Of a stretch of 64,000 bases of DNA, positions 33,731 through 46,927 are shown in pieces. The stretch is from an uncultured Flavobacteriales bacterium (GTDB lineage: Bacteria; Pseudomonadota; Alphaproteobacteria; UBA8366; CAVOAK01). Position 1 is the stretch's first letter. Each line of letters begins with the position of its first letter. Where the stretch lies: positions 3,808-67,807 of the forward strand of contig CAYQNO010000013.1 of NCBI GenBank assembly GCA_964419045.1. Direction: 5' to 3'. The notes beneath the pieces are model-generated. The model had not been told where the DNA came from. It made no database searches and was given only the letters and a program-made list of their open reading frames with translations. Made by a program: the position numbers and the translations under genes.

Positions 33731-34666
33731 ATGGATATACAAGGTTCAAAGAAGGTCATATATGCCGCTTTCGTGGGCAATCTTTTGATTGCAGTAACAA
33801 AACTGGCGGCAGCGGTATTCACCGGTAGTTCTGCCATGGTGAGTGAGGCTGTCCATTCGATCGTTGACACAGTCAACCAGCTTCTACTCTTATATGGCCT
33901 TCGCCGTGCACAGCGTCAACCAGATGAATCCCACCCGTACGGCTACGGTATGGAGCTATATTTCTGGACCTTCGTTGTTGCGATCCTCATCTTTGGGCTT
34001 GGTGCTGGCGTTTCATTTTATGAAGGGATACAGAAACTACTAAAGCCGCATCCAATCTCAAACCCAGCCGTGAATTATATTGTACTAGCTGTAGCCATGA
34101 TTTTTGAAGCAGCAGCCTGGACCATCGCCTTTCGGGAGTTCCGCAGAGTGAAAGGCTCTGACGGATACATAGCTGCAGTTCGGCGAAGTAAAGACCCGGC
34201 CGTGTTTACGGTGTTGTTTGAGGACAGTGCAGCCATGGCGGGTCTTGTGATCGCGTTTGCTGGAATCCTAGCAGGCCAACTCCTCAACATGCCTATCATG
34301 GACGGAATAGCAGCTATCTGTATCGGTGTTATCTTAGCCATTGTTGGTGCGCTACTAGCCTACGAAGCAAAGGGCCTGCTCATAGGAGAAGCGGCTAAAC
34401 CATCAGTTGTGCGGAATATCAGAAAAATTGTCGAGAATGAATCTGGGATTTTAAATCTAAATGAAATGCTCACAATGCATTTTGGTCCCAAGGACGTCCT
34501 GCTCAACCTTAGTATTGATTTTGCAGATAACCTAAGTTCCCGAGATGTGGAGGAGTCAATTTCTCACATGGAACAGCAAATCAAAGAAAAACATCCTGAA
34601 GTAACCCGTGTATTTATTGAAGCACAAGGTAAACGCGCCAGTGATACTGCTAAAACCAACCACTAA
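33731..34666 (+). CDS. Cation diffusion facilitator (ZnT9/FieF-like)
   Basis: SEAVHSIVD, HPYGYG.E.YFW, FEDSAA, DG, C-terminal metallochaperone-like domain. Confidence 0.9.
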   Translation: MDIQGSKKVIYAAFVGNLLIAVTKLAAAVFTGSSAMVSEAVHSIVDTVNQLLLLYGLRRAQRQPDESHPYGYGMELYFWTFVVAILIFGLGAGVSFYEGIQKLLKPHPISNPAVNYIVLAVAMIFEAAAWTIAFREFRRVKGSDGYIAAVRRSKDPAVFTVLFEDSAAMAGLVIAFAGILAGQLLNMPIMDGIAAICIGVILAIVGALLAYEAKGLLIGEAAKPSVVRNIRKIVENESGILNLNEMLTMHFGPKDVLLNLSIDFADNLSSRDVEESISHMEQQIKEKHPEVTRVFIEAQGKRASDTAKTNH

Positions 34667-34930: not shown

Positions 34931-36919
34931 TTGATGGAATATTCGGTGGTTAGAAAAAATTTTATGCATAAGAAAATCGAATTCATTTGTCGCCAATTAG
35001 GTGGCAGTCTTCTAGTAATTATTTTTGGACTTGTTGGCCTGGTAGCAATTACTACGGCCGACGTTCGCGCTTTTGAACTGCAAAATGGAGTATTGTTTTC
35101 CGGATTGCAGCTGGCAAATACTGCGGCAACCACAGATGATGACGAGCTTATCGATGATGATGACCTTATCAGTGACGAAGACGAGGACGAGGAAGCAGAC
35201 GAAGAGGAGGAGTTGGAAGAAGATAATGTGGTAAAGGATGGGTCGGAAGCTCATGAAGCATTGTTTGCCGAAAGTCGCTATCCATCAGCTGGAACCTGCG
35301 GCACTTGCCATCCTAAACATTATCGCGAATGGCGCGTATCTCAACACTCATATTCACAATTAAGTCCTATCTATCTCTCGCTTAATAACAAAATAAACGA
35401 ACTTGCAAACGGTTCAAATGGGGACTTTTGTCTTCGCTGTCATAATCAGGTCGGTGCCAATTTGGGTGAAGACTCATTCGTATCAAATTTAGAACGCCAC
35501 CCAACGTCACGTGAAGGTATTACATGTGTTGTCTGCCACCGTATTAATAAAAGTTACAACAAGGCAAGCGGGCGCCTAGCCTTAGTCGAGGGCGGACTCA
35601 CAGAGCCCATCTTTGGACCTAAGGGGAACGAGGAACTAGCTCGAGTACTCGAAAATACCCACAAATATAGAGTGGTTACAGAGCCCGACGAATCGGGCCG
35701 TCAAATTCATAAGGAGGTAACCCAGTTTACCAATATTTCCCAACCTACATTTTGTGGGACTTGTCATGATGTAACTTTGTTTAACGGTTTCCGGCTGGAA
35801 GAAGCATTTAGTGAATACCGAATGTCACCTGCTGCAAAGCGGGGTGTAACCTGCCAAGACTGTCACATGGGCAAAGTACAGGGTAAGGTTTCTGGATATG
35901 AATTTGGACCAGCAGCCGTCGTAGGTGGTATAGAGACAGAGCCGCGAAAGATTACGGATCACTTTTTCGGAGGGCCCGACTATTCGATCATCCATCCTGG
36001 CATTTTTCCCCATAGTTCAGAAGCGCAACAGATGGCCAGCTTGGGAGAGTGGTTGCAATTCGACGTTGAAGCCGGGTGGGGAACCGACGCGTTCGAAGAC
36101 AATGTTGCGGACGATGCAAGTTTTCCCGAGCGTTGGCAGGCAATAGACGACAGATATGATGCACGTGAAATAATTAACGAACAACTAGAACTCTTGGCGT
36201 GGGCTACGGAGAAACGCCTAGAAGTTTTGCGTAACGGCTATCTTATGACTGACATTGTGACTGAGAAGGCTGATTCTGGAGGCATCAGATTTAAAGTGAA
36301 AGTTGAGAGTGCAACAGACGGCCACAACATACCAACTGGATTTACAGGCGAACGCCTGGTTTGGCTTGATGTGACCGTAACTGACCAAAACGGGACTGTA
36401 ATCATGAGGTCGGGTGACCGAGATCCAAATGGTGACCTTCGTGACGGACATTCAGCGTATGTACATGCTGGGGAAATTGATCTTGATCCTCAACTGTTCA
36501 GTCTCCAGTCTATATTTGTAACGCAGAATGGTCGTGGCGGTGAGATTGAACATGTAATCCCAATTCCTTATCCAGTCATCTCGCTGCCGCGTGTTTTACC
36601 TTCAGTGGCTTCACTGGTCTTTACCGGTGAGCCTGCCACGGAACGTAACCATAAAAAAGGGATAGAGCCACTAGGTCATCGTTGGGCTAAGTATAAAATC
36701 GATGGCAAGAATTTAACTGGAAAGGGACCTTACCGGGCGGTGATTAAGCTAATCCAACAACCGGTACCTATCAACTTGCTTGTGGCAATGCAAAGCGTTG
36801 GCTTTGATTACGGGCTTACTCCCCGCCAGGCAGGTGACGCGGTAATTGCAGGGGCGCAGGTCTTGTGGGAAAAAGAAATTGTATTTGAAGTGGATCAATT
36901 GGCTGAAGCTGCCAAATGA
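34931..36919 (+). CDS. Exported pentaheme c-type cytochrome (c554-like heme core, acidic N-terminal tract, large heme-free C-terminal domain)
   Basis: Five CxxCH: CGTCH, CLRCH, CVVCH, CGTCH, CQDCH; signal peptide ending VRA; HNIPTG motif. Real start may be ATG 34964. Confidence 0.9.
   Translation: MMEYSVVRKNFMHKKIEFICRQLGGSLLVIIFGLVGLVAITTADVRAFELQNGVLFSGLQLANTAATTDDDELIDDDDLISDEDEDEEADEEEELEEDNVVKDGSEAHEALFAESRYPSAGTCGTCHPKHYREWRVSQHSYSQLSPIYLSLNNKINELANGSNGDFCLRCHNQVGANLGEDSFVSNLERHPTSREGITCVVCHRINKSYNKASGRLALVEGGLTEPIFGPKGNEELARVLENTHKYRVVTEPDESGRQIHKEVTQFTNISQPTFCGTCHDVTLFNGFRLEEAFSEYRMSPAAKRGVTCQDCHMGKVQGKVSGYEFGPAAVVGGIETEPRKITDHFFGGPDYSIIHPGIFPHSSEAQQMASLGEWLQFDVEAGWGTDAFEDNVADDASFPERWQAIDDRYDAREIINEQLELLAWATEKRLEVLRNGYLMTDIVTEKADSGGIRFKVKVESATDGHNIPTGFTGERLVWLDVTVTDQNGTVIMRSGDRDPNGDLRDGHSAYVHAGEIDLDPQLFSLQSIFVTQNGRGGEIEHVIPIPYPVISLPRVLPSVASLVFTGEPATERNHKKGIEPLGHRWAKYKIDGKNLTGKGPYRAVIKLIQQPVPINLLVAMQSVGFDYGLTPRQAGDAVIAGAQVLWEKEIVFEVDQLAEAAK
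35135..35224 (+). repeat. Low-complexity Asp/Glu tract (23 of 30 residues acidic)
   Basis: DDDELIDDDDLISDEDEDEEADEEEELEED, encoded by GAT/GAC/GAA/GAG-rich DNA. Confidence 0.9.
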
Positions 36920-36999
36920 TCTTCCTACTAATGTAATTCCACCTTAATCAGACTAGTAGTTAGGACAGGTTATTGAATAAATCAGGGGAGAGTCGCTGT

Positions 37000-38487
37000 A
37001 TGAACACTTCCTTGCGGGATAAGGCCAAATTGCGTGCCCACTCCGCTGCAGTAATATATTCTTTTATGGTTTTCTCCCTGTTTGTGAGTAGCTCTCATGC
37101 CAATGCAGGTAGTGAAAGTAAATGGTATGATTTTTTCTGGCCGCTTGGTGCACCAGTTCACGTTGAAGCCCTCAAGGAAGAATACGTACCATATAAATCA
37201 ACCGGAGAAATACCGTTTCGACCGGGTCTTCTAATAGAATTGGGCGATCCATTTCTTGATACTGGACAACTGGATCCAGGTTTTGAAGTCCCTTTGATCG
37301 AAGCTGTATGGCAACCTCGATTGTGGTCATATTTTATTCATCGCACGACATTACAGACTTTCGACAATGGCGCCGACGGTAGGGATCGAGATACGGAGTG
37401 GGCAAACCGTCTCGATTTTTTTGCAAATTTACAACTAACCGGAACTGAAAAAATTCTCCTTGGTCTTCGTCCAGTGGATAATAATCAACCCGGAAGGTTC
37501 TCCCGAATTGCATTCGATAGTTCGGATAATGGGTTTAAAAATGAGCTTAATTTGGACGTAGAGACTCTATTCTTCGAAGGTGATATAGGAAGTCTCCTCC
37601 CGGTACTCGACCGTGCTGGCATCAAGCCAATAGATTTCGGATTTACTGTTGGTCGACAGCCTTTTACTTTCCAGGAAGGTATCATTATCAACGATACCGT
37701 CGATGCGATTGGTTTTGTTAGGAATAACATCCCCTTTCCTGGAACTTCTAATCTTCGAATTTCAGGTTTGTGGGGTTGGCACCGACTTGACCGGAATGAC
37801 AGAGCTCGCAGCTCTGACGCCAACATGTACGCGCTCTTTACGGCTGTAGATGCGCCCGTTAGCACGTTCAATCTTGATTTAATCTATGTAGATGACAACG
37901 CTAACGACGGTAGTGGTGACGGTTTCTATGTGGGTGCATCCGCCATTCAGCGTATCCGGGCACTGGGTGGGATGAGCACTGCGTTTCGCATTAATAGCTC
38001 TATTGCCCTTGATGATGAGATTGGAGGAAATGTCATTGGTAATGGGACACTGTTAACAGCGGAATTCTCAAAGACACCGCACGGGTCAGATGACATTGCA
38101 TACGTTAACCCATTTCTTAGCATTGGTAACTTCACCCAGGCAGGCCGCGAGCCCATTCTTGGTGGCCCATTAGCTAATACCGGCATACTGTTTGCATCAC
38201 CAAATCTTAGTACCCACGGCGCCGAAATAAACCCATTTACCGACGACGTTTATGGTCTGGCCACCGGCTACCAAGCATTTTGGGATAATAAGAGACGAAA
38301 TCTTATTTTAGAACTAGCGGCTCGTCGTGACTACAGTGGGAATGGGTTTGATTCTTATGGAGCAGGATTCCAGCTGCAACAGGCAGTCGGACAACACTAC
38401 CAGTTACAGTTAGAGGGATTTCATACAATCCAGACAACACGCCAAGATGCCACTGGTGCCCGAGCCGAAATTTTAATTGTATTTTGA
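37000..38487 (+). CDS. Putative outer-membrane beta-barrel (porin-like) protein
   Basis: Signal peptide (SHA cleavage), many amphipathic alternating strands, C-terminal ARAEILIVF ending in Phe (BAM signal), no CxxCH. ATG 37000 has RBS AGGGGAG. Confidence 0.75.
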   Translation: MNTSLRDKAKLRAHSAAVIYSFMVFSLFVSSSHANAGSESKWYDFFWPLGAPVHVEALKEEYVPYKSTGEIPFRPGLLIELGDPFLDTGQLDPGFEVPLIEAVWQPRLWSYFIHRTTLQTFDNGADGRDRDTEWANRLDFFANLQLTGTEKILLGLRPVDNNQPGRFSRIAFDSSDNGFKNELNLDVETLFFEGDIGSLLPVLDRAGIKPIDFGFTVGRQPFTFQEGIIINDTVDAIGFVRNNIPFPGTSNLRISGLWGWHRLDRNDRARSSDANMYALFTAVDAPVSTFNLDLIYVDDNANDGSGDGFYVGASAIQRIRALGGMSTAFRINSSIALDDEIGGNVIGNGTLLTAEFSKTPHGSDDIAYVNPFLSIGNFTQAGREPILGGPLANTGILFASPNLSTHGAEINPFTDDVYGLATGYQAFWDNKRRNLILELAARRDYSGNGFDSYGAGFQLQQAVGQHYQLQLEGFHTIQTTRQDATGARAEILIVF

Positions 38488-38590: not shown

Positions 38591-39877
38591 ATGATGGAGG
38601 CAAATTTCATTTCCACAGCCTTTCAATTTGCCGGTATCATGATTATCGGCGTCGTCTTGATTCAAGTTGTCCTGATGCTTATTTCGTCATTCCGTCATTT
38701 TTCACGTGAGGACGAACGGGAGAAATTAGGGCTCAATACGTTGCGTTACCGGACCGAAGCCCTCCTAGTTCGTAGCAATACTGAGCGGGAACGCGTGGAG
38801 CTTTCCTGGAACGGTTTTCGTAAATTCGAAATACAAAGTATCGTTTCCGAGGCAAAGGACATTAATTCATACTACCTGGTGCCACACGATGGAAAACCTC
38901 TGCCCCCATTTTTGCCAGGCCAATACCTAACATTCCAATTAAAGATTCCAGATTTAGCAAAGCCCCTTATTCGATGTTATTCGCTATCAGACAGTCCAAA
39001 TCACTCGGATCGCTACAGAGTCTCCATAAAAAAAATTCTGTCACCACGTAACGAACCCGATGCCCCACCTGGTCGCTCATCTTCATACTTCCATGAGAGT
39101 CTGAACGTCGGCGATATTCTCGATGTCAAGGCGCCGAGTGGTCATTTTTATCTACAAACTGCAAAAGATAATTCTATCGTGCTAATAGGAGGTGGGATCG
39201 GTATCACGCCTGTACTCAGCATGTTGAACGCGCTTTGCGAATCAGAATCCAAGCGAGAAGTTTGGTTTTTTCTGGGCCTACGAAACGGTTCTGAACACCC
39301 CATGAAGGATCATCTAACGGAGTTAGCTAATGTTCACGAAAATCTCCAATTGAATATTTGCTATAGTAATCCCGAGGAACATGACGTTAAAGGACACGAC
39401 TACCAGCATGCGGAACGAGTCAGTGTTGACTTGTTCAAACGATTACTACCTTCTAATAACTATACATTTTATATCTGTGGACCTCCCCCGATGATGGAAA
39501 TGGTGACTGAGGATTTAAAGTTATGGGGGGTGCCTGAGGATGAAATTCACTTCGAGGCATTTGGCGCAGCGACGGTCAAGCGGACGAAAGTGGTCACAGC
39601 AGAACCCAAGGAAGGAGCGGTTGTTCCGCATATCGTATTTTCTCGGTCAGGAGCTACACTTCCATGGGATGGAAGTGCCGAATCGCTGCTTGACTTTGCA
39701 GAGCGTAACGGAATTGATATCGATTCTGGCTGCAGAGCGGGCAATTGTGGTACTTGCATCACGGCCATAAAATCGGGCGAAATAGAGTATAGTATCGAGC
39801 CTGGAGCTCCACCCGAAGATGGGTCATGTCTGACTTGTATTTCAATACCAAAATCTAATCTAACGTTGGACGCATGA
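38591..39877 (+). CDS. Membrane-anchored FAD/NAD(P)H-binding oxidoreductase with C-terminal [2Fe-2S] ferredoxin (FNR/PDR-type)
   Basis: N-terminal TM (FAGIMIIGVVLIQVVLMLI), RCYSLS, GRSSSY, GGGIGITP, YICGP, FEAFG, CRAGNCGTC...C. Confidence 0.9.
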   Translation: MMEANFISTAFQFAGIMIIGVVLIQVVLMLISSFRHFSREDEREKLGLNTLRYRTEALLVRSNTERERVELSWNGFRKFEIQSIVSEAKDINSYYLVPHDGKPLPPFLPGQYLTFQLKIPDLAKPLIRCYSLSDSPNHSDRYRVSIKKILSPRNEPDAPPGRSSSYFHESLNVGDILDVKAPSGHFYLQTAKDNSIVLIGGGIGITPVLSMLNALCESESKREVWFFLGLRNGSEHPMKDHLTELANVHENLQLNICYSNPEEHDVKGHDYQHAERVSVDLFKRLLPSNNYTFYICGPPPMMEMVTEDLKLWGVPEDEIHFEAFGAATVKRTKVVTAEPKEGAVVPHIVFSRSGATLPWDGSAESLLDFAERNGIDIDSGCRAGNCGTCITAIKSGEIEYSIEPGAPPEDGSCLTCISIPKSNLTLDA

Positions 39878-39983: not shown

Positions 39984-41033
39984 TTGACCGCTATGATAAA
40001 ATTTAATCTGCCAGTCCCAGTTGGCTGCCTCTCAATGATGGCGGCCCTAGCTTTCGGACTCGTTGTTGGGATTTCGGTTTTCCAAGGACAAGTAAATGCC
40101 CAAGAATATCGACTTGATCCGAAAGCAGTTGTGGGGCCTGATGCATGCGGCGAATGCCATAAATCTTCCGTAACAACTTGGAAATTAACGCATCACTCAA
40201 CAACATTTAAGAGCCTACCAAGAAGCAAAAAGGCGAAGGAAATAGCTAACAAACTTGGACTCAAGAGAATCAAGGCAGAAAGCGACTGTTTGACATGCCA
40301 CTTCACAACAGCAGTAAAAAAAGGCAAGGAGGCACCCATTGCCGGCATTACCTGTGAATCGTGTCACGGCGCAGGAAAAGACTGGATAAAATTACACAGT
40401 GATTACGGCGGTAAGGGTGCGACAAAGGATTCAGAATCTGCAGCGCACAAAGCAGAACGTTACGCAAATTCTGAAGCTGCGGGTATGATCAGGCCTTCCC
40501 TTCTCTACGATGTTGCAGCCAATTGTTATGGTTGCCACACAGTGCCAAATGAGGAACTTGTCAACAAGGGTGGGCATCCAGCTGGAAGCAAGTTTGAACT
40601 CGTTGCTTGGACGCAGGGTGAAGTACGCCACAACGTTTGGTATAGCAAAGAAAATAACGAAGCTTCGACTAATCGCAGACGGATGATGTATATCGTAGGT
40701 AAAGCCCTTGATCTTGAATTTGCACTCCGTGGCGTAGGTAAGGCGACAGCAAACAAAACCTATGCAAAATCTATGGCACGGCGGGCAAAATTGGCACGTA
40801 AGGCTATACAAACTATCGCTGCCGTAATTAAAACGCCTGAACTAAATTCGATCGTTATAGCGGCCAGTGAGGCAAAACTGAAGCTCAACAACGACGCTGC
40901 CTTATCGGCCGCGGCTGACAAAATAGCCGCCGCAGCCCGGAAATTTGCAAAAAATTACGATGGTAGCCAATTTATTGGTATCGATGACATGTTACCCGCT
41001 GCCAATAAATATAAGGGTAAAATAGCGCCGTAG
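39984..41033 (+). CDS. Exported tetraheme cytochrome c (c554-like), Lys-rich
   Basis: CGECH, CLTCH, CESCH (GITCESCHG), CYGCH; signal peptide ending VNA. Confidence 0.9.
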   Translation: MTAMIKFNLPVPVGCLSMMAALAFGLVVGISVFQGQVNAQEYRLDPKAVVGPDACGECHKSSVTTWKLTHHSTTFKSLPRSKKAKEIANKLGLKRIKAESDCLTCHFTTAVKKGKEAPIAGITCESCHGAGKDWIKLHSDYGGKGATKDSESAAHKAERYANSEAAGMIRPSLLYDVAANCYGCHTVPNEELVNKGGHPAGSKFELVAWTQGEVRHNVWYSKENNEASTNRRRMMYIVGKALDLEFALRGVGKATANKTYAKSMARRAKLARKAIQTIAAVIKTPELNSIVIAASEAKLKLNNDAALSAAADKIAAAARKFAKNYDGSQFIGIDDMLPAANKYKGKIAP

Positions 41034-41067: not shown

Positions 41068-42819
41068 ATGGCAAAATCGGTGCTGATCCAGCAGTCTCGG
41101 CGTTGGGACAATCCATTCAGCGCGGATATGACCGAAGCCGATGTAGATCGAATTTTAGATATCGAGTTATTTCGCAACATGGATGCCGAAAAGTTTCCGG
41201 CATCTGCGTCATTACGAGATATCATACGAAATGACATGTGCATCCGCGAATATCGTAGTGGTGATATTATTATCCGTGAAGATGATTACGATACTTCGGC
41301 ATTCATCGTAATGTCAGGCAGTGTGCGTGCAGTATTGCCGCCAGGGCTAGCCAATGAAGTACTTGGTAGGGCTGATATGCCAAGGAAAGGACTCTGGGAA
41401 GCATTTAAGCAGATCTGGACTAATCCCGAATTTCCGGAGGTTCGTGACCCTTCTCGTTATACTAACGCTCGCGGTACTGGTACACGACAAATCGATTCAG
41501 AAGAAATACATATTTTTCTCCAGAACGTGCCGGATATTTTAGAGAAAAATCGTACCGTACAATTTGGGCCTGGCGAAATGTTCGGTGAAATCGCTGCCCT
41601 TGCTCGTGAGGCGCGGACTGCGACTATCTTTGCTGATGAAGATTCAGTACTCGTCGAAGTTAGACGTCAGGGAATACTCAATATACGACGCCGCGCAGTC
41701 GAGTTTCGCCAATACGTGGATCAGTTATATCGGGAACGTACACTTACAACTCACTTGCAAGAAACGCCAATATTCAACCATCTCAGAGCGGAAATAATTG
41801 AGATGATTGCGGAGAAAACATTATTTGATACTTTTGGGGATTTCTCCTGGTACATAAACTATAAGAAAATGATCGAAGACAGCAGTAGTGAAAGGCTGGC
41901 TCAGGAACCAATTATAGTAGAAGAAGGGCATTACCCTGATGGCCTCTTGATGATCCGAAGCGGATTTGCACGCGTAAGCCGCCGGCTAAACCATGGTCAA
42001 CAGACCGTGCGCTATATTGGTCGCGGTACAGTCTTCGGCTTTGATGAAATTGTGCGGCAATGGCAGAGTGGTAGTAAAGACTCAGAAGGCTATCGCTACT
42101 CCCTACGCTCTGTGGGCTATACTGACGTCCTAAGAGTCCCAACATCGATTATCGAAGAATACGTACTACCCACCATGCCGGAAGATATTCTAACTGCTCA
42201 TTTGGAAACTGAGTTAAATACATACGTAGAAACCAATAAGGATACGTACGAGGAAAACCCGGACGGTGATGATCCTGTAATAGGGACGTCCAAACTCGAA
42301 TTTATCGTTGAGAACCGTTATATTAATGGTACTGCTACGATGCTAATAGATCTTGACCGGTGTGTTCGGTGTGATTCTTGTGTCGAAGCTTGCGCTACTG
42401 GTCATAACAACAATCCGCGATTTCTCAGGCATGGAAGGACTTTCGATCACTTCATGGTGGCTAACGCTTGCATGCACTGTACTGATCCTGTCTGCATGAT
42501 TGGATGTCCAACTGGCGCAATCCACCGTAATGCATTAGGGGGGCAAGTTGTCATAAATGATGATACCTGTATTGGCTGTGCATCATGCGCAAATAATTGC
42601 CCATACGATAATATTAGAATGGTGGAAATTCGAGATTCAAATGGTGAATTTATTCGTGATGAAGCTACCAATTCAACAATCTTAAAAGCCTCTAAATGTG
42701 ATCTTTGTGCTGATCAGCCAGGCGGTCCAGCATGCCAGCGCGCTTGCCCACACGATGCGTTATACCGAGTAAATATGGGCGAGCTGCCATCCATCACTGC
42801 ATTACTGAGCCGACAATGA
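41068..42819 (+). CDS. Cytoplasmic protein with two cNMP-binding domains fused to a DmsB/NrfC-like 4x[4Fe-4S] domain
   Basis: CNBD1 FGEIAALAREARTAT; degenerate CNBD2 (GTVFGFDE); Cys motifs CVRCDSCVEAC, CMHCTDPVCMIGCP, CIGCASCANNCP, KCDLC...PACQRACP; no signal peptide. Confidence 0.9.
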   Translation: MAKSVLIQQSRRWDNPFSADMTEADVDRILDIELFRNMDAEKFPASASLRDIIRNDMCIREYRSGDIIIREDDYDTSAFIVMSGSVRAVLPPGLANEVLGRADMPRKGLWEAFKQIWTNPEFPEVRDPSRYTNARGTGTRQIDSEEIHIFLQNVPDILEKNRTVQFGPGEMFGEIAALAREARTATIFADEDSVLVEVRRQGILNIRRRAVEFRQYVDQLYRERTLTTHLQETPIFNHLRAEIIEMIAEKTLFDTFGDFSWYINYKKMIEDSSSERLAQEPIIVEEGHYPDGLLMIRSGFARVSRRLNHGQQTVRYIGRGTVFGFDEIVRQWQSGSKDSEGYRYSLRSVGYTDVLRVPTSIIEEYVLPTMPEDILTAHLETELNTYVETNKDTYEENPDGDDPVIGTSKLEFIVENRYINGTATMLIDLDRCVRCDSCVEACATGHNNNPRFLRHGRTFDHFMVANACMHCTDPVCMIGCPTGAIHRNALGGQVVINDDTCIGCASCANNCPYDNIRMVEIRDSNGEFIRDEATNSTILKASKCDLCADQPGGPACQRACPHDALYRVNMGELPSITALLSRQ

Positions 42820-43637
42820 ATTTGGCGACCCGTCGCCGACGAAATTTGTTGATTACACTAGCAATTGCGATCGGCTTATATTGTGTACACTGGATTTACA
42901 ACGCAGCTCTTTACAATGCCGCATTCCTCTCAGGATGGGCGCTATTCATCTCGATTCTGTTTCTTACTCTCTACAATTTGCGTAAAAAAATTACTATGCT
43001 ACCAATCGGTTCGAATGCAGCGTGGCTGCAACTACATATCTATCTTGGTTGGCTCGTAATATTTTTATTTGTCCTCCATATTGGATGGCGCGTCCCCGAT
43101 GGGTTAATCGAAGTTACTCTAGCTATCTTGTTCATAGTCGTCGCAGGAACCGGAGTCTTAGGCATTTTACTATCTCGTACCCTACCTAAACGCCTCACTC
43201 GACGAGGCGAAGAAATTATTGTCGAGCGTACGCCAATCTTTCTTGCCAGATTGCGGGAAGAAGCAGAACAGATTGTCATCATTTCGGCCTCAGAAACTGG
43301 CTCAAACACAATTCGTGACTTTTATGCGGAACATCTACATTTCTATTTTAGAAAACCGAGAAATTTTTTGCTACACTTGATCTCCTCAAATCGAGGAGTG
43401 TTCAAATTACAATCTGAATTCAATAATACTGACCGCTACCTCAATGCAGCAGAGCGTGAGCTTTTTGGTAAATTACGCACTCTTGTAGTAAAAAAGGACG
43501 ACATAGATTTTCAATACGCGCTCCAAACCATGCTCAAAGCTTGGCTTTTGATACATATTCCTGTCACCTATGCCCTTATACTGTTGGCAGTGCTACATCT
43601 AGTCATCGTTCACGCATATAGCAGCGGACTTGGATGA
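42816..43637 (+). CDS. Inner-membrane ferric-reductase-like (diheme b) transmembrane protein
   Basis: About 5 TM; His pairs H74-x13-H88 (TM3) and H247-x13-H261 (TM5); ATGA overlaps with both neighbours. ATG 42816 preferred over 42732. Confidence 0.75.
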   Translation: MNLATRRRRNLLITLAIAIGLYCVHWIYNAALYNAAFLSGWALFISILFLTLYNLRKKITMLPIGSNAAWLQLHIYLGWLVIFLFVLHIGWRVPDGLIEVTLAILFIVVAGTGVLGILLSRTLPKRLTRRGEEIIVERTPIFLARLREEAEQIVIISASETGSNTIRDFYAEHLHFYFRKPRNFLLHLISSNRGVFKLQSEFNNTDRYLNAAERELFGKLRTLVVKKDDIDFQYALQTMLKAWLLIHIPVTYALILLAVLHLVIVHAYSSGLG

Positions 43638-45862
43638 CAAACCCACTGCAGCATTTCGATTTCAGGAAAAGTACCTATCAGCGCCCTAATCAGACTTGGG
43701 TCTGTGGCAGAATGGTGGACGGAAACCCCTGTCAGATTGGTCCTGATATCAAGGGGAACTGTCAAGCTCACCACGAATGCCAGCCCAGCAGAAATAAAGA
43801 TAGGTGGCAATGTAATCGATCTGAATCTTCAGGTGGCAAATGCGATGAAGGCCCTATGCCGGACGGCACATGCTGCAGAGCCATCCCACGTTGTCAACCA
43901 ATCAGAAGCTGGCGTGGCCGTATACGTTCTATTAGAAATTGGGTATTCATAGCATCTGTAGGTTTACTTCTTACAGCTCTTAGTAGTCCCTTTACTTCAA
44001 ATTTTTTAAATCCCGGAAATGTTACCTTTCAACATGGTGAAATAGCTGACTGTACCGTGTGCCACTCAGCGCACAATAAGAGCGTATTGAGCTGGCCGCT
44101 GGCAGTTTTTACTCAGTCTACTAAAGATAAGGACAATGAGCTTTGTATTGCTTGTCACGATCTAGGAAAGAATCCTTCTGATCCGCACGGACTACCATCT
44201 GATACTCTCAGCGCTCTCACAAAAACAGCAGACACCAACAACGTCACCGGACAACCACTTCTACTGACCGCAGCATCCTGGGCCAGAGATCTTCCTCTCC
44301 ACGATGATACTGGTATTGCATGTTCAACATGTCACCAAGAACATAACGGTAAAGCATTTGAATTGACGGCAATGTCTAACAAACAGTGCGTAGCGTGCCA
44401 CGTAGTACATTTTTCAGCGTTGTCACGTGGCCACCCAGAATTCACTAATTTTCCGTTTGATCGCCGTACGCGAATTAACTTTGATCACGGGAGTCATCTG
44501 GGAACACATTTTCAAACAACAGAATTCAAGGAACATGCGCCACAGCAATGCACTACATGCCATGTGCCTGAAGACACTGGTCGTAATATGGTGGTCAAAG
44601 AATTCGAAACAATGTGTACTGCCTGTCACGGTGCGCAGATTGTTGGTTTTGGGAGAGCTACCTCGAAGGGGCATAAGATATTTTCTGTACCAGGGCTTGA
44701 CGTTACTGCTCTTGAAGAACGCAACGTACCTATCGGTCAATGGCCTGAAGACGCTGAAGGTGGAATAACGCCCTACATGGACATCCTACTCGCTATGGAT
44801 CAAGAATATAGAATCGCAAAATTGAATCTCCAAGGGCTGGACCTCCTTGACCTCGAGAATGCGAGCGATGAGGAAATTGCGAATATTGAACGCTTAGCTT
44901 GGAGTATAAAGGAATTGTATTTCGATCTTGCAACTAAGGGCATTGCAGCTCTTCAATCACGATTCGAGAATGCTTTGGGCTACGAGTTAGGATCCGACGA
45001 ATTAGCACGACTGACGAACCTGTTACCGATGGATGGAATCATGGCAGCTAAAAACCTTTGGTTCCCCAGTCTATTGGATGAAGTCAGGCGACATCGTGAT
45101 GGTGAAATAGTTGCTATTCAAAATATTAGTCAGATAGATAGTTTTGGTTCTTTATCCAACGTTGTTAAAGGCTCAAGTAAAAATGGTCAGAATATAGGTC
45201 TGAGCGATGATGAAATAGGAGATGATGAAATAGGAGATGATGATATTGAAGAAGAGGAAGTTGGAGACGATGAAGATACAAATATAAAATCAGTCATAAA
45301 CGAAGATTGGGCAAGCGCGGGGGGCTGGTATCGAGAGGGTTTTAGTCTGCGCTATCGACCTTCAGGACATGCAGACACCTTCATTAGGAGTTGGCTTGAT
45401 ATATCGGGGCAAGCAACAACAAATTTGAGCAAAGATTCAACAGTTGAAATATTCGAAAATCTGTCAAATGCTAAATCACCCGGCATATGTTCAAAATGCC
45501 ATAGCGTAGATGTTATTGGAACTGGCCTGTACAAGGTGAATTGGGAGAGTAAACGGCGAATTCCAAACCAGCAGACGTTTACAGCGTTTTCACATGTTAG
45601 TCACTTCACACTTTTGGACGAGCGTGGCTGCCTAACCTGTCATAGCCTAAATCTGGAGGCTGAGTTTGCTGATGGTTACAAGAACTCCGACCCAATGACA
45701 TTCTCAAGTAACTTCAATCCCGTTGAGCGGACCACCTGCGCAGCATGTCATACCGCAGCAGAAGCTGGAGACAATTGCGTAACCTGCCATAACTATCATA
45801 TTGGTATATTTCCACCTGCACAGACTAACACACACAAAATGATGAAACAGGCCCAGAACTAA
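43634..45862 (+). CDS. Membrane-anchored decaheme cytochrome c with duplicated Cys-rich N-terminal module
   Basis: Ten CxxCH (CTVCH, CIACH, CSTCH, CVACH, CTTCH, CTACH; then CSKCH, CLTCH, CAACH, CVTCH) in a 6+4 arrangement; TM near residues 103-121 preceded by an Arg-rich segment. Confidence 0.9.
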   Translation: MTNPLQHFDFRKSTYQRPNQTWVCGRMVDGNPCQIGPDIKGNCQAHHECQPSRNKDRWQCNRSESSGGKCDEGPMPDGTCCRAIPRCQPIRSWRGRIRSIRNWVFIASVGLLLTALSSPFTSNFLNPGNVTFQHGEIADCTVCHSAHNKSVLSWPLAVFTQSTKDKDNELCIACHDLGKNPSDPHGLPSDTLSALTKTADTNNVTGQPLLLTAASWARDLPLHDDTGIACSTCHQEHNGKAFELTAMSNKQCVACHVVHFSALSRGHPEFTNFPFDRRTRINFDHGSHLGTHFQTTEFKEHAPQQCTTCHVPEDTGRNMVVKEFETMCTACHGAQIVGFGRATSKGHKIFSVPGLDVTALEERNVPIGQWPEDAEGGITPYMDILLAMDQEYRIAKLNLQGLDLLDLENASDEEIANIERLAWSIKELYFDLATKGIAALQSRFENALGYELGSDELARLTNLLPMDGIMAAKNLWFPSLLDEVRRHRDGEIVAIQNISQIDSFGSLSNVVKGSSKNGQNIGLSDDEIGDDEIGDDDIEEEEVGDDEDTNIKSVINEDWASAGGWYREGFSLRYRPSGHADTFIRSWLDISGQATTNLSKDSTVEIFENLSNAKSPGICSKCHSVDVIGTGLYKVNWESKRRIPNQQTFTAFSHVSHFTLLDERGCLTCHSLNLEAEFADGYKNSDPMTFSSNFNPVERTTCAACHTAAEAGDNCVTCHNYHIGIFPPAQTNTHKMMKQAQN
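45206..45277 (+). repeat. 15-bp tandem repeat (GATGATGAAATAGGA x2 plus a degenerate third copy) encoding an acidic linker
   Basis: Protein DDEIG-DDEIG-DDDIEEEEVGDDED between heme 6 and heme 7. Confidence 0.9.
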
Positions 45863-45898: not shown

Positions 45899-46390
45899 TT
45901 ACTTACCAATTTTACCCTCTTTTTTACCCCAAGTTTCTAGGCGAACCGGTTCATCCGGATTACGACGAAATATGATGGGCGCTCGACGTTTTGCTATACG
46001 CCATCCCTCGGAGGTGCGTTCCAGCGCCGCATAACAGTCGACCAAACGATGTGGGCCCTCAAATGGTAACGGCCCATCTACCTTCTCAAATTCTGCGTCA
46101 GCTGTGTAATAAAGCGTATGATATTCGTTTAATTCTGCATGGTCCTCATCAATAACGTTAACAACAGTATTCGATAACACATGACGAATAGTTCCTTCGC
46201 CAAGGGCCGCCTGGAGTCCTTTCAATAATTCTTCACGACCATTTAGTTTCACACCATGAGACAGCCAATCGATGTCTTCAGTAAACAGGTTTGCTGCACT
46301 CTCGAAATCTCTATGATCCACGTAGTCGTAGTACTGACGCATGGTTTTTTCGCAATCCCACTCAATTGCACGTTCCTGCTCACGTTTCAT
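45899..46390 (-). CDS. SnoaL/NTF2-like family protein (paralogue 1)
   Basis: YYDYVD.RDF....LFT.D, RHVLSN, GWRIAKR. Confidence 0.85.
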   Translation of the reverse strand: MKREQERAIEWDCEKTMRQYYDYVDHRDFESAANLFTEDIDWLSHGVKLNGREELLKGLQAALGEGTIRHVLSNTVVNVIDEDHAELNEYHTLYYTADAEFEKVDGPLPFEGPHRLVDCYAALERTSEGWRIAKRRAPIIFRRNPDEPVRLETWGKKEGKIGK

Positions 46391-46435: not shown

Positions 46436-46927
46436 TTATTCTGATGTTCTACCTTCACTTTTACCCCATGTCTCAAGCCTCACCGGTTCTTCTGGATCAC
46501 GTCGGAATACAAGCAATGAGCGCCGCTTGGAAATACGCCATCCATCTGGCGTACGTGTGAGCTCAGCATAACTGTCGAGAAGCCTGTGAGGGCCCTCCAT
46601 TGCCAATGGATCATCAGCTTCTTGGTATTCTGCATCCGCAGTGTAATAAAGGGTATTGTAAGAACGACAAATAGCGTGATCCTTATCTGAAACAGTTACT
46701 ACTGAATTGGTCAGGATATGACGGACTGTTCCTTCACCTAGTGATGCGTAAAGGCCCTTCAGGAGTTCATCGCGACCATCGAGTTTTACTCCGTGCGAAA
46801 GCCAGTCGACATCTTTAGTAAAAAGATCTACCGCTTTTTCAAATTCACGCCTATCTACATAATAATAGTAACGACGCATAATTTTCTGACATTCCCACTC
46901 GATGGCGCGTTCCTGTTCCCGATCCAT
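46436..46927 (-). CDS. SnoaL/NTF2-like family protein (paralogue 2)
   Basis: Same length (163 aa) and ungapped alignment with the neighbour; roughly two-thirds identical by eye. Confidence 0.85.
   Translation of the reverse strand: MDREQERAIEWECQKIMRRYYYYVDRREFEKAVDLFTKDVDWLSHGVKLDGRDELLKGLYASLGEGTVRHILTNSVVTVSDKDHAICRSYNTLYYTADAEYQEADDPLAMEGPHRLLDSYAELTRTPDGWRISKRRSLLVFRRDPEEPVRLETWGKSEGRTSE

Follow-up and report, generated by a model that had tools for sequence, protein, structure and literature searches.

PtdF, encoded in a 64,000-nucleotide stretch of genomic DNA from an uncultured marine bacterium (GenBank assembly GCA_964419045.1, contig CAYQNO010000013.1; the whole stretch is called the window here), is probably an inner-membrane b-type diheme cytochrome that takes electrons from NAD(P)H by way of the reductase PtdC and the iron-sulfur (Fe-S) protein PtdE and passes them outward to the decaheme cytochrome PtdG, with no quinone needed. 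That PtdF is a diheme-b transmembrane carrier is its best reading, well supported in silico by invariant histidine pairs on predicted parallel transmembrane (TM) helices, a ring of helices recovered by direct coupling analysis (DCA), and partners in the operon to either side of the membrane. From these data we infer heme binding, the direct partners and their order, the direction of flow, and quinone independence.

The same seven genes have been named ptdABCDEFG in a preprint (bioRxiv 10.1101/2023.11.21.568154), which terms PtdF “ferric reductase-like” and PtdB a porin. Gene order in the window fits the operon as defined there, with the membrane-protein gene between the cyclic nucleotide monophosphate (cNMP)/4Fe-4S and decaheme genes, and the window protein is the orthologue of the preprint PtdF. 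The diheme or ferric-reductase idea is already public there as an annotation phrase. Among the papers searched, none besides this preprint uses the ptd gene names.

Histidine pairs and helix packing of PtdF

One motif, W-x3-H-x13-H, occurs twice in PtdF, once on TM3 (residues 70-88, WLQLHIYLGWLVIFLFVLH, containing H74 and H88) and once on TM5 (residues 243-261, WLLIHIPVTYALILLAVLH, containing H247 and H261), so that both His pairs have i/i+14 spacing with 13 intervening residues. Among 206 full-length homologues, which share 33-72% identity with the query (median 40%), the motif is invariant on both helices, with H88 and H261 conserved in 100% of the sequences and H74 and H247 in 99.5%. The positions conserved at 97% or above number 11: the four His together with G40, W70, P94, G113, G116, D231, and W243. 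The other His residues are poorly conserved, H25 reaching 17% and H173, H175, and H266 being minority residues; the exception is H187, conserved at 87%, which belongs to the cytoplasmic TM4-TM5 insertion. The pattern of paired His is strongly non-random and far beyond chance.

The topology of PtdF places the two members of each pair at different levels of the membrane. A positive-inside analysis of 286 family sequences (mean number of Lys plus Arg per loop) assigns the N-terminus (3.2), loop 2-3 (3.3), and the insertion (18.4) to the cytoplasm and loops 1-2 (0.6) and 3-4 (0.7) and the C-terminus (0.25) to the periplasm. Because of this assignment, TM3 and TM5 are taken to be parallel, each running from N-in to C-out, with H74 and H247 on the cytoplasmic side and H88 and H261 on the periplasmic side. 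An AlphaFold2 (AF2) model computed from 30 homologues has helices at residues 3-30, 35-58, 67-89, 97-129, and 211-269, with an all-helical TM4-TM5 segment (mean predicted local distance difference test score (pLDDT) 90.3; predicted template modelling score 0.80).

Helix packing was examined by mean-field DCA of 286 PtdF sequences (effective number, 231), taking the top 100 couplings at a sequence separation of at least 6. These couplings connect TM2 to TM3 (7), TM3 to TM4 (7), TM4 to TM5 (4), and TM2 to TM5 (8); there are none between TM2 and TM4 or between TM3 and TM5, and the first TM3-TM5 pair appears at rank 109. The coupled positions suit antiparallel neighbors, as evidenced by 43-85, 49-77, and 53-67, by 75-117 and 82-110, and by 41-266, 51-251, and 54-248. 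As judged from these couplings, TM2 to TM5 form a predicted four-helix ring in which the His helices TM3 and TM5 lie diagonally opposite one another, the geometry of a bis-His diheme bundle as in cytochrome b. A diagonal TM3/TM5 pair without direct contact would be expected if the hemes sit between the two helices. The DCA does not depend on the AF2 model, though the homologues are largely common to both.

In cytochrome b, glycines on the flanking helices leave space for the porphyrins. The invariant glycines of PtdF fall on the two core helices without His, G40 on TM2 in its periplasmic half and G113 and G116 on TM4 in its cytoplasmic half, and may correspond to the cytochrome b arrangement. 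The cytoplasmic-side heme would then be ligated by H74 of TM3 and H247 of TM5 and the periplasmic-side heme by H88 of TM3 and H261 of TM5, both lying inside the TM2-TM3-TM4-TM5 bundle, where G40, G113, and G116 would give the porphyrins space.

Much of this structure had been anticipated in an earlier model-generated reading of the letters of the same DNA (the original prediction). The His pairs that it placed on TM3 and TM5, 13 residues between the members of each, are exact in the translation; its TM4-TM5 insertion of about 110 residues measures about 118 (residues 121-238); the invariance that it expected of the four His extends through the homologue set; and the DCA ring with diagonal TM3 and TM5 fits its expectation that the four His face each other, as far as couplings can tell.

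The start codon of ptdF is backed by 72 homologues of about 272 residues that can be aligned from residue 1. Its ATG shares the sequence ATGA with the ptdE stop, and the ptdF stop overlaps the ptdG start, so that ptdE, ptdF, and ptdG are joined by 4-nucleotide overlaps within the window. An alternative start at 42732, giving a longer open reading frame, was unsupported by the homologue alignment.

Family placement

The sole curated family that PtdF reaches at threshold is DUF4405 (PF14358), which in Pfam matches residues 39-90 with an E value of 8e-6 and a score of 26.7 bits, equal to the gathering score of 26.7. Ni_hydr_CYTB (PF01292) matches at E 0.03 and 14.5 bits, under its cut-off of 30.1, and Ferric_reduct (PF01794) gives no match to the window protein at E<=1 and none across the window’s own genome. 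When 30 PtdF relatives are compared with Pfam at E<=1, DUF4405 is matched in 21, Ni_hydr_CYTB in 20, DUF3732 in 12, and Ferric_reduct in 4, the last with a best E value of 2e-3 and all sub-threshold. With DUF3732 excepted, the weak families that recur across most relatives are diheme cytochrome families. No NCBIfam model covers PtdF, and the database names of its homologues are all “hypothetical protein.”

The likeness to DUF4405 is centered on the first His helix. In a bona fide DUF4405 subfamily taken from a relative’s genome, the invariant residues W55, H59, and H73 spell W-x3-H-x13-H, and hhalign sets this helix in register with TM3 of PtdF. Several results from these searches weigh against the diheme-b reading. 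The hhalign match is weak (E 0.008, probability 5%), and bc1 cytochrome b of related genomes also reaches 22-27 bits with the DUF4405 profile, so the PtdF match is better read as a generic diheme helix pair than as specific membership. A Foldseek search of the PDB with the full PtdF model returned only BAR-domain and sensor helical bundles (E>0.7), the long cytoplasmic helices dominating the search; an AF2 model of TM1-4 (pLDDT 84) returned only Cys-loop receptor TM bundles (E>1.7); and phmmer and family-profile hmmsearch against PDB sequences gave chance matches only. A PF14358 scan of the window’s own genome reported a single match (G000:C9:316603-316797, locus L098), which is the bc1-complex cytochrome b and not PtdF.

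The original prediction placed PtdF in the NOX/MsrQ Ferric_reduct family, and there is some resemblance to explain. Ferric_reduct proteins carry one pair of His on TM3 and another on TM5, the members of each pair being 12-13 residues apart, and PtdF shares this layout, together with an N-in orientation, a TM2-5 core, and a cytoplasmic TM4-TM5 insertion. An alignment of MsrQ from Escherichia coli and Alphaproteobacteria has the invariant motif W147-x3-H151-x12-H164, which differs from that of PtdF by a single position of spacing. Together with the Ferric_reduct matches in four of the relatives and the label in the preprint, this topology would suit genuine, if highly divergent, membership of the NOX/FRE/STEAP/MsrQ group with loss of TM6. 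Such membership is unlikely. The window protein has no PF01794 match; hhalign against MsrQ gave nothing meaningful, pairing the wrong helices at a probability of 11%; and five TM helices are predicted where the ferric-reductase domain has six, TM6 being absent while the TM2-5 ring with diagonal TM3 and TM5 is present. Matches to DUF4405 and Ni_hydr_CYTB are each about five times commoner among the relatives than matches to Ferric_reduct. In the Foldseek searches, the PDB, which contains NOX, DUOX, and STEAP, returned none of these and nothing at E<=0.001, a soft negative given that Foldseek is weak on short TM bundles. The family assignment of the original prediction is accordingly not supported: PtdF has ferric-reductase-domain topology without demonstrable membership and, as far as sequence comparison can place it, appears to represent an uncurated family within the broad diheme-b cytochrome superfamily, with DUF4405 closest.

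A recognizable Ferric_reduct protein does occur in a relative’s genome (L090, G008:C12:416893-420231). This 703-residue protein has, by eye, an EF-hand-like N-terminus and an FAD/NAD-like C-terminal half, comparable with a NOX5-like bacterial NADPH oxidase.

Operon context and natural fusions

The genes around ptdF encode putative redox partners for either side of the membrane (Table 1). PtdE, with Cys groups at C432, C468, C501, and C544, is assigned to the cytoplasm because it has two cNMP-binding domains and no export signal. The first ~100 residues of PtdG (window 43634-43930) comprise a Cys-rich segment of ~90 residues that lacks CxxCH, followed by a stretch rich in Arg and a single TM helix; the positive-inside rule would put the Cys-rich segment in the cytoplasm, beside PtdF and PtdE. 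The operon has no gene for an energy-coupling subunit.

Table 1. Features of the ptd operon and of PtdF in the window, and distant PtdF-like loci. Synteny counts are for loci with enough flanking DNA; the 39 loci are those flanked on each side by 6 kb or more. FNR, ferredoxin-NADP+ reductase; FAD, flavin adenine dinucleotide.
Feature	Position	Strand	Description
ptdA	34931..36919	+	Pentaheme c cytochrome (5 CxxCH) with large heme-free C-terminal domain; 27/39 loci
ptdB	36973..38487	+	504-aa exported protein, no Pfam match; 27/39 loci
ptdC	38591..39877	+	FAD/NAD(P)-binding FNR-type reductase with N-terminal TM anchor and C-terminal plant-type [2Fe-2S]; 36/39 loci
ptdD	39984..41033	+	Exported tetraheme cytochrome (4 CxxCH), cytochrome c554-like; 36/39 loci
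ptdE	41068..42819	+	Cytoplasmic; two cNMP-binding domains, four DmsB/HybA-type Cys groups; directly 5' of ptdF in 71/75 loci
ptdF	42816..43637	+	Membrane protein of 273 aa; five TM helices, cytoplasmic N-terminus, periplasmic C-terminus; predicted diheme-b cytochrome
TM3 motif W70-x3-H74-x13-H88	43023..43079	+	W70, H74, and H88 99.5-100% conserved (206 homologues); in register with DUF4405 W-x3-H-x13-H
PtdF cytoplasmic insertion, TM4-TM5	43176..43529	+	All-helical, residues 121-238; motif RLTRRGEE-x3-ER-x-P, invariant D231
TM5 motif W243-x3-H247-x13-H261	43542..43598	+	Second His pair; 9/19 residues identical to TM3 motif
ptdG	43634..45862	+	Decaheme c cytochrome (10 CxxCH), N-terminal Cys-rich segment, one TM helix; directly 3' of ptdF in 63/63 loci
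723-aa fusion, Hwanghaeella metagenome-assembled genome	L103:2680-4848	-	Pyr_redox_2, Rubredoxin_C, BFD-like [2Fe-2S], and C-terminal PtdF-like TM domain
Neighbors of 723-aa fusion	L103:1173-2663, L103:545-1144	-	497-aa multiheme cytochrome c, then Tll0287-like protein
Distant pair	L104:1719-4444	-	629-aa PtdE-like protein (two cNMP and 4Fe-4S domains), then 320-aa PtdF-like protein

The PtdF family is large, with 1,655 cluster representatives (50% identity) at E<=1e-3 and 330 at E<=1e-30. One conserved PtdF peptide pattern retrieves 429 species genomes, nearly all marine or saline metagenome-assembled genomes (MAGs), and ptd loci cover at least 10 phylum-level groups; carriers belong to Alphaproteobacteria, Gammaproteobacteria, Planctomycetota, Verrucomicrobiota, Nitrospirales, Nitrospinae, SAR324, Poribacteria, Lentisphaerae, and Thermoanaerobaculia. 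Gene order is conserved across 84 loci. It follows from the synteny counts that the inner-membrane set of PtdC, PtdD, PtdE, PtdF, and PtdG is the conserved core and the outer-membrane module is optional. The host of the window is a marine planktonic alphaproteobacterium of the order that includes Hwanghaeella, a genus in which the operon is also found; within that order ptdF is patchy (17 of 41 genomes), and it is single-copy in the window’s 2.28-Mb genome.

The donor side of the operon is variable, as shown by three Nitrospirales loci (L053:4742-12676, L075, and L084) that encode PtdA, PtdB, a 155-residue [2Fe-2S] (Fer2) protein, PtdD, PtdF, and PtdG. These loci have neither PtdE nor the FNR module and keep only the [2Fe-2S] protein. 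PtdE is thus not an obligatory donor, which counts against the proposed chain on its cytoplasmic side. A copper-type P-type ATPase gene lies 3' of one of these Nitrospirales loci.

Distant relatives found by profile search of related genomes provide a second view of the domain’s partners. The Pyr_redox_2/Rubredoxin_C/[2Fe-2S] part of the 723-residue Hwanghaeella fusion resembles the N-terminal half of NirB, and hhalign matches its TM domain to TM2-TM4 of PtdF with a probability of 92.8% (E 4e-7), setting WRLVH...H in register with WLQLH...H. A second H-x13-H is found on the last TM helix; the TM4-TM5 loop is short, and the 118-residue insertion is absent. The same architecture occurs in a second genome as a 732-residue protein (L105, P0503). 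Searched against the whole class, the NirB-like fusion protein matched only the N-terminal parts of ordinary NirB, and the fusion is therefore rare; it looks like a seemingly undescribed single-chain NAD(P)H:cytochrome transmembrane reductase. In the distant pair, which comes from a third genome, the 629-residue PtdE-like protein has an N-terminal extension resembling part of a pyridine-nucleotide oxidoreductase, and the 320-residue PtdF-like protein matches Ni_hydr_CYTB at 6e-5. Independently of the operon, these fusions and pairs show, at the level of domain composition, that this kind of putative diheme domain is linked both to cytoplasmic NAD(P)H flavo-Fe-S modules and to multiheme cytochromes. 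Because the flavoprotein-fused relative has no insertion, the PtdF insertion may be a docking surface, needed where the donor is a separate polypeptide.

Direct fusions of PtdE to PtdF carry little weight. One candidate (P0475, 660 residues) is a frameshift artefact in which the PtdE C-terminus is out of frame. Another (P0124, 843 residues) continues in frame from PtdE to PtdF through an intact PtdE C-terminus and is possibly genuine, but it is a single case.

A marine metatranscriptome contains a 191-nucleotide contig 100% identical to ptdF, a short contig identical to ptdG, and another on ptdB with 3 differences in 151 nucleotides, together a weak sign of expression; high transcription of ptdAB has been reported from an oxygen-deficient zone. 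Upstream of the window operon, 265 nucleotides 5' of ptdA, lies a cation diffusion facilitator gene (Cation_efflux and ZT_dimer domains; 33731-34666, + strand), which may point to a metal-related setting. A search of the window for the Fur-box consensus, allowing up to 3 mismatches, found nothing. Directly 3' of the operon are two tandem, very similar paralogous open reading frames of 163 residues on the - strand (45899-46390 and 46436-46927).

Proposed electron path and comparison with known systems

In the proposed path, NAD(P)H would reduce the FAD and then the [2Fe-2S] cluster of membrane-anchored PtdC, from which electrons would pass to the four predicted [4Fe-4S] clusters of PtdE. PtdE would dock on PtdF, probably at the helical cytoplasmic insertion, and deliver electrons to the cytoplasmic-side heme and from there to the periplasmic-side heme. 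From PtdF they would move to membrane-anchored decaheme PtdG, then to tetraheme PtdD, and, where it is present, to the PtdA/PtdB outer-membrane module. No quinone would be needed at any point. Flow in this direction would be downhill in potential and aided by the membrane potential, whereas inward flow would run against both.

The direct donor to PtdF is more probably PtdE than the FNR-type PtdC, because ptdE overlaps ptdF and almost always adjoins it. In NOX, the flavin reduces the heme directly. An Fe-S protein acting on a diheme b subunit would make the wiring of PtdF closer to that of NarHI and FdnHI. The original prediction had described PtdF as the inner-membrane crossing point, following NOX-like logic toward multiheme cytochromes, and as part of a split NOX completed by the reductase at 38591. 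The crossing point draws support from the conserved partners on both sides and from the natural flavoprotein fusion, and what lacks support is the NOX family label; likewise, an NAD(P)H flavoprotein may well feed the diheme module, but a split NOX is too simple, as PtdE most likely stands between PtdC and the hemes.

The likeness to NarHI and FdnHI raises the prospect that PtdF is instead a quinone-reactive cytochrome b of the NarI/FdnI/CbcL type, tying the quinone pool to PtdG, PtdE, or both and making Ptd a respiratory branch. FdnHI and NarHI do pair a four-cluster protein of the DmsB/HybA type to a diheme b anchor, the Nitrospirales variant manages without PtdE and the FNR module, and weak matches to Ni_hydr_CYTB, the FdnI/HydC family, recur in two thirds of the relatives examined and in the 320-residue distant protein. 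We give this reading a small chance, somewhat below that of Ferric_reduct membership. Among the 30 relatives the Ni_hydr_CYTB matches all fall under the cut-off, and the ligand layouts differ: FdnI distributes its His 1+1+2, and NarI has them on TM2 and TM5 with spacings of 10 and 18. PtdF has 2+2 on TM3 and TM5, unlike the 1+1+2 over four TM helices of Ni_hydr_CYTB. Furthermore, an NAD(P)H reductase and an Fe-S protein are nearly always co-encoded with PtdF, and the relative fused to an NAD(P)H flavoprotein would constitute a complete quinone-free path.

A chain running inward, from extracellular or periplasmic donors through the cytochromes and PtdF to cytoplasmic ferredoxin-like clusters or NAD(P)+, is improbable. 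Multiheme conduits are in principle reversible, and the operon is present in chemolithoautotrophs (Nitrospirales and Nitrospinae) that need low-potential reductant. An electron taken inward would pass from the positive side to the negative, against both the membrane potential and the redox gradient to -320 mV; the operon supplies no subunit for energy coupling, and most carriers are heterotroph-type MAGs. Least probable is that the four His bind no heme, forming another metal site for transport or sensing or leaving PtdF a mere scaffold for PtdE and PtdG: the cation-efflux gene just 5' of the window operon and the copper P-type ATPase 3' of one Nitrospirales locus would agree with it, and against it stand the i/i+14 pairs on parallel diagonal helices with invariant flanking Gly, which is the classical bis-heme arrangement, the recurrence of diheme cytochrome families (DUF3732 aside) in the weak matches, and neighbors that are all redox proteins.

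To our knowledge, all characterized bacterial feeds to periplasmic multiheme cytochromes (CymA, ImcH, CbcL, CbcBA, and NetBCD) take their electrons from the quinone pool. If true, a route fed by NAD(P)H and crossing the membrane by way of a small diheme b protein would let electrons into extracellular electron transfer at a different point; such a route would be energy-dissipating and hence suit assimilatory or signalling chemistry. PtdF would be the component that every electron must cross, and its family, large as it is, is entirely unnamed. We tentatively extend this to the possibility that PtdC, PtdE, PtdF, and PtdG form a quinone-independent, NAD(P)H-fed export line, a prokaryotic multi-subunit analogue of NOX/FRE serving non-respiratory extracellular reduction. 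Such a line would be extended by multiheme cytochromes and, in ~70% of loci, by the outer-membrane module. Its users would number in the hundreds of marine, mostly aerobic species, spread over at least 10 phylum-level groups, and its role might be, for example, to acquire iron reductively or to carry out redox reactions at surfaces, perhaps under gating by a cyclic nucleotide. On that view, diheme domains like that of PtdF would serve generally as adaptors between cytoplasmic flavo-Fe-S dehydrogenases and periplasmic cytochromes, as in the NirB-like fusion. Quinone-independent transfer from NAD(P)H to the periplasm would raise the weight of the PtdF finding considerably.

The ptd operon described in the available part of the preprint (bioRxiv 10.1101/2023.11.21.568154) has the same composition as that of the window (pentaheme cytochrome, porin, FAD/NAD oxidoreductase, tetraheme cytochrome, cNMP/4Fe-4S protein, membrane protein, and decaheme cytochrome) and the same marine habitat in Alphaproteobacteria, Nitrospirales, and Planctomycetes. 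The analyses of PtdF His residues, topology, coevolution, family membership, and fusions are additions to that part of the text.

The closest biochemical precedent comes from the nearest curated family, DUF4405, and by comparison with it heme binding by PtdF is predicted. An Oscillospiraceae DUF4405 protein and FezC have been purified and shown by pyridine hemochrome to contain heme b, with four central His laid out as in MsrQ and PepSY-like proteins (PMC11334425, 2024). DUF4405 shares with PtdF an invariant W-x3-H-x13-H helix and has been proposed as a transmembrane electron carrier. The described DUF4405 members have six TM helices or are dimeric and occur with ApbE flavinylation or ferrosomes, whereas PtdF, with a marginal match to the family, has five TM helices, a helical insertion of 118 residues in the cytoplasm, and partners of the Fe-S and multiheme kinds.

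MsrQ-Fre and the NOX/FRE proteins (PF01794) resemble PtdF in being N-in, in carrying His pairs on TM3 and TM5, in having a cytoplasmic NAD(P)H flavoprotein as ultimate donor, and in exporting electrons. They differ in having six TM helices rather than five, and PtdF gives no profile or fold match to them. The spacing of the His is 14 in both pairs of PtdF and 13 in MsrQ; in NOX2 the spacings are 14 and 13. Ptd appears to place a [2Fe-2S] and about four [4Fe-4S] clusters between flavin and heme, and its acceptor would be a decaheme cytochrome rather than the O2, Fe(III), or MsrP of NOX, FRE, and MsrQ.

NarH-NarI and FdnH-FdnI, too, join a four-cluster Fe-S protein of the DmsB/HybA type to a diheme b subunit through which electrons cross the membrane. 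Their anchors are quinone-reactive and have other His layouts, whereas PtdE carries two cNMP domains and Ptd has no catalytic molybdoenzyme. Finally, CymA, ImcH, CbcL, and CbcBA feed periplasmic multiheme cytochromes and porin-cytochrome conduits, as Ptd is proposed to do. These are quinol dehydrogenases, whereas Ptd is seemingly fed by NAD(P)H through flavin and Fe-S clusters.

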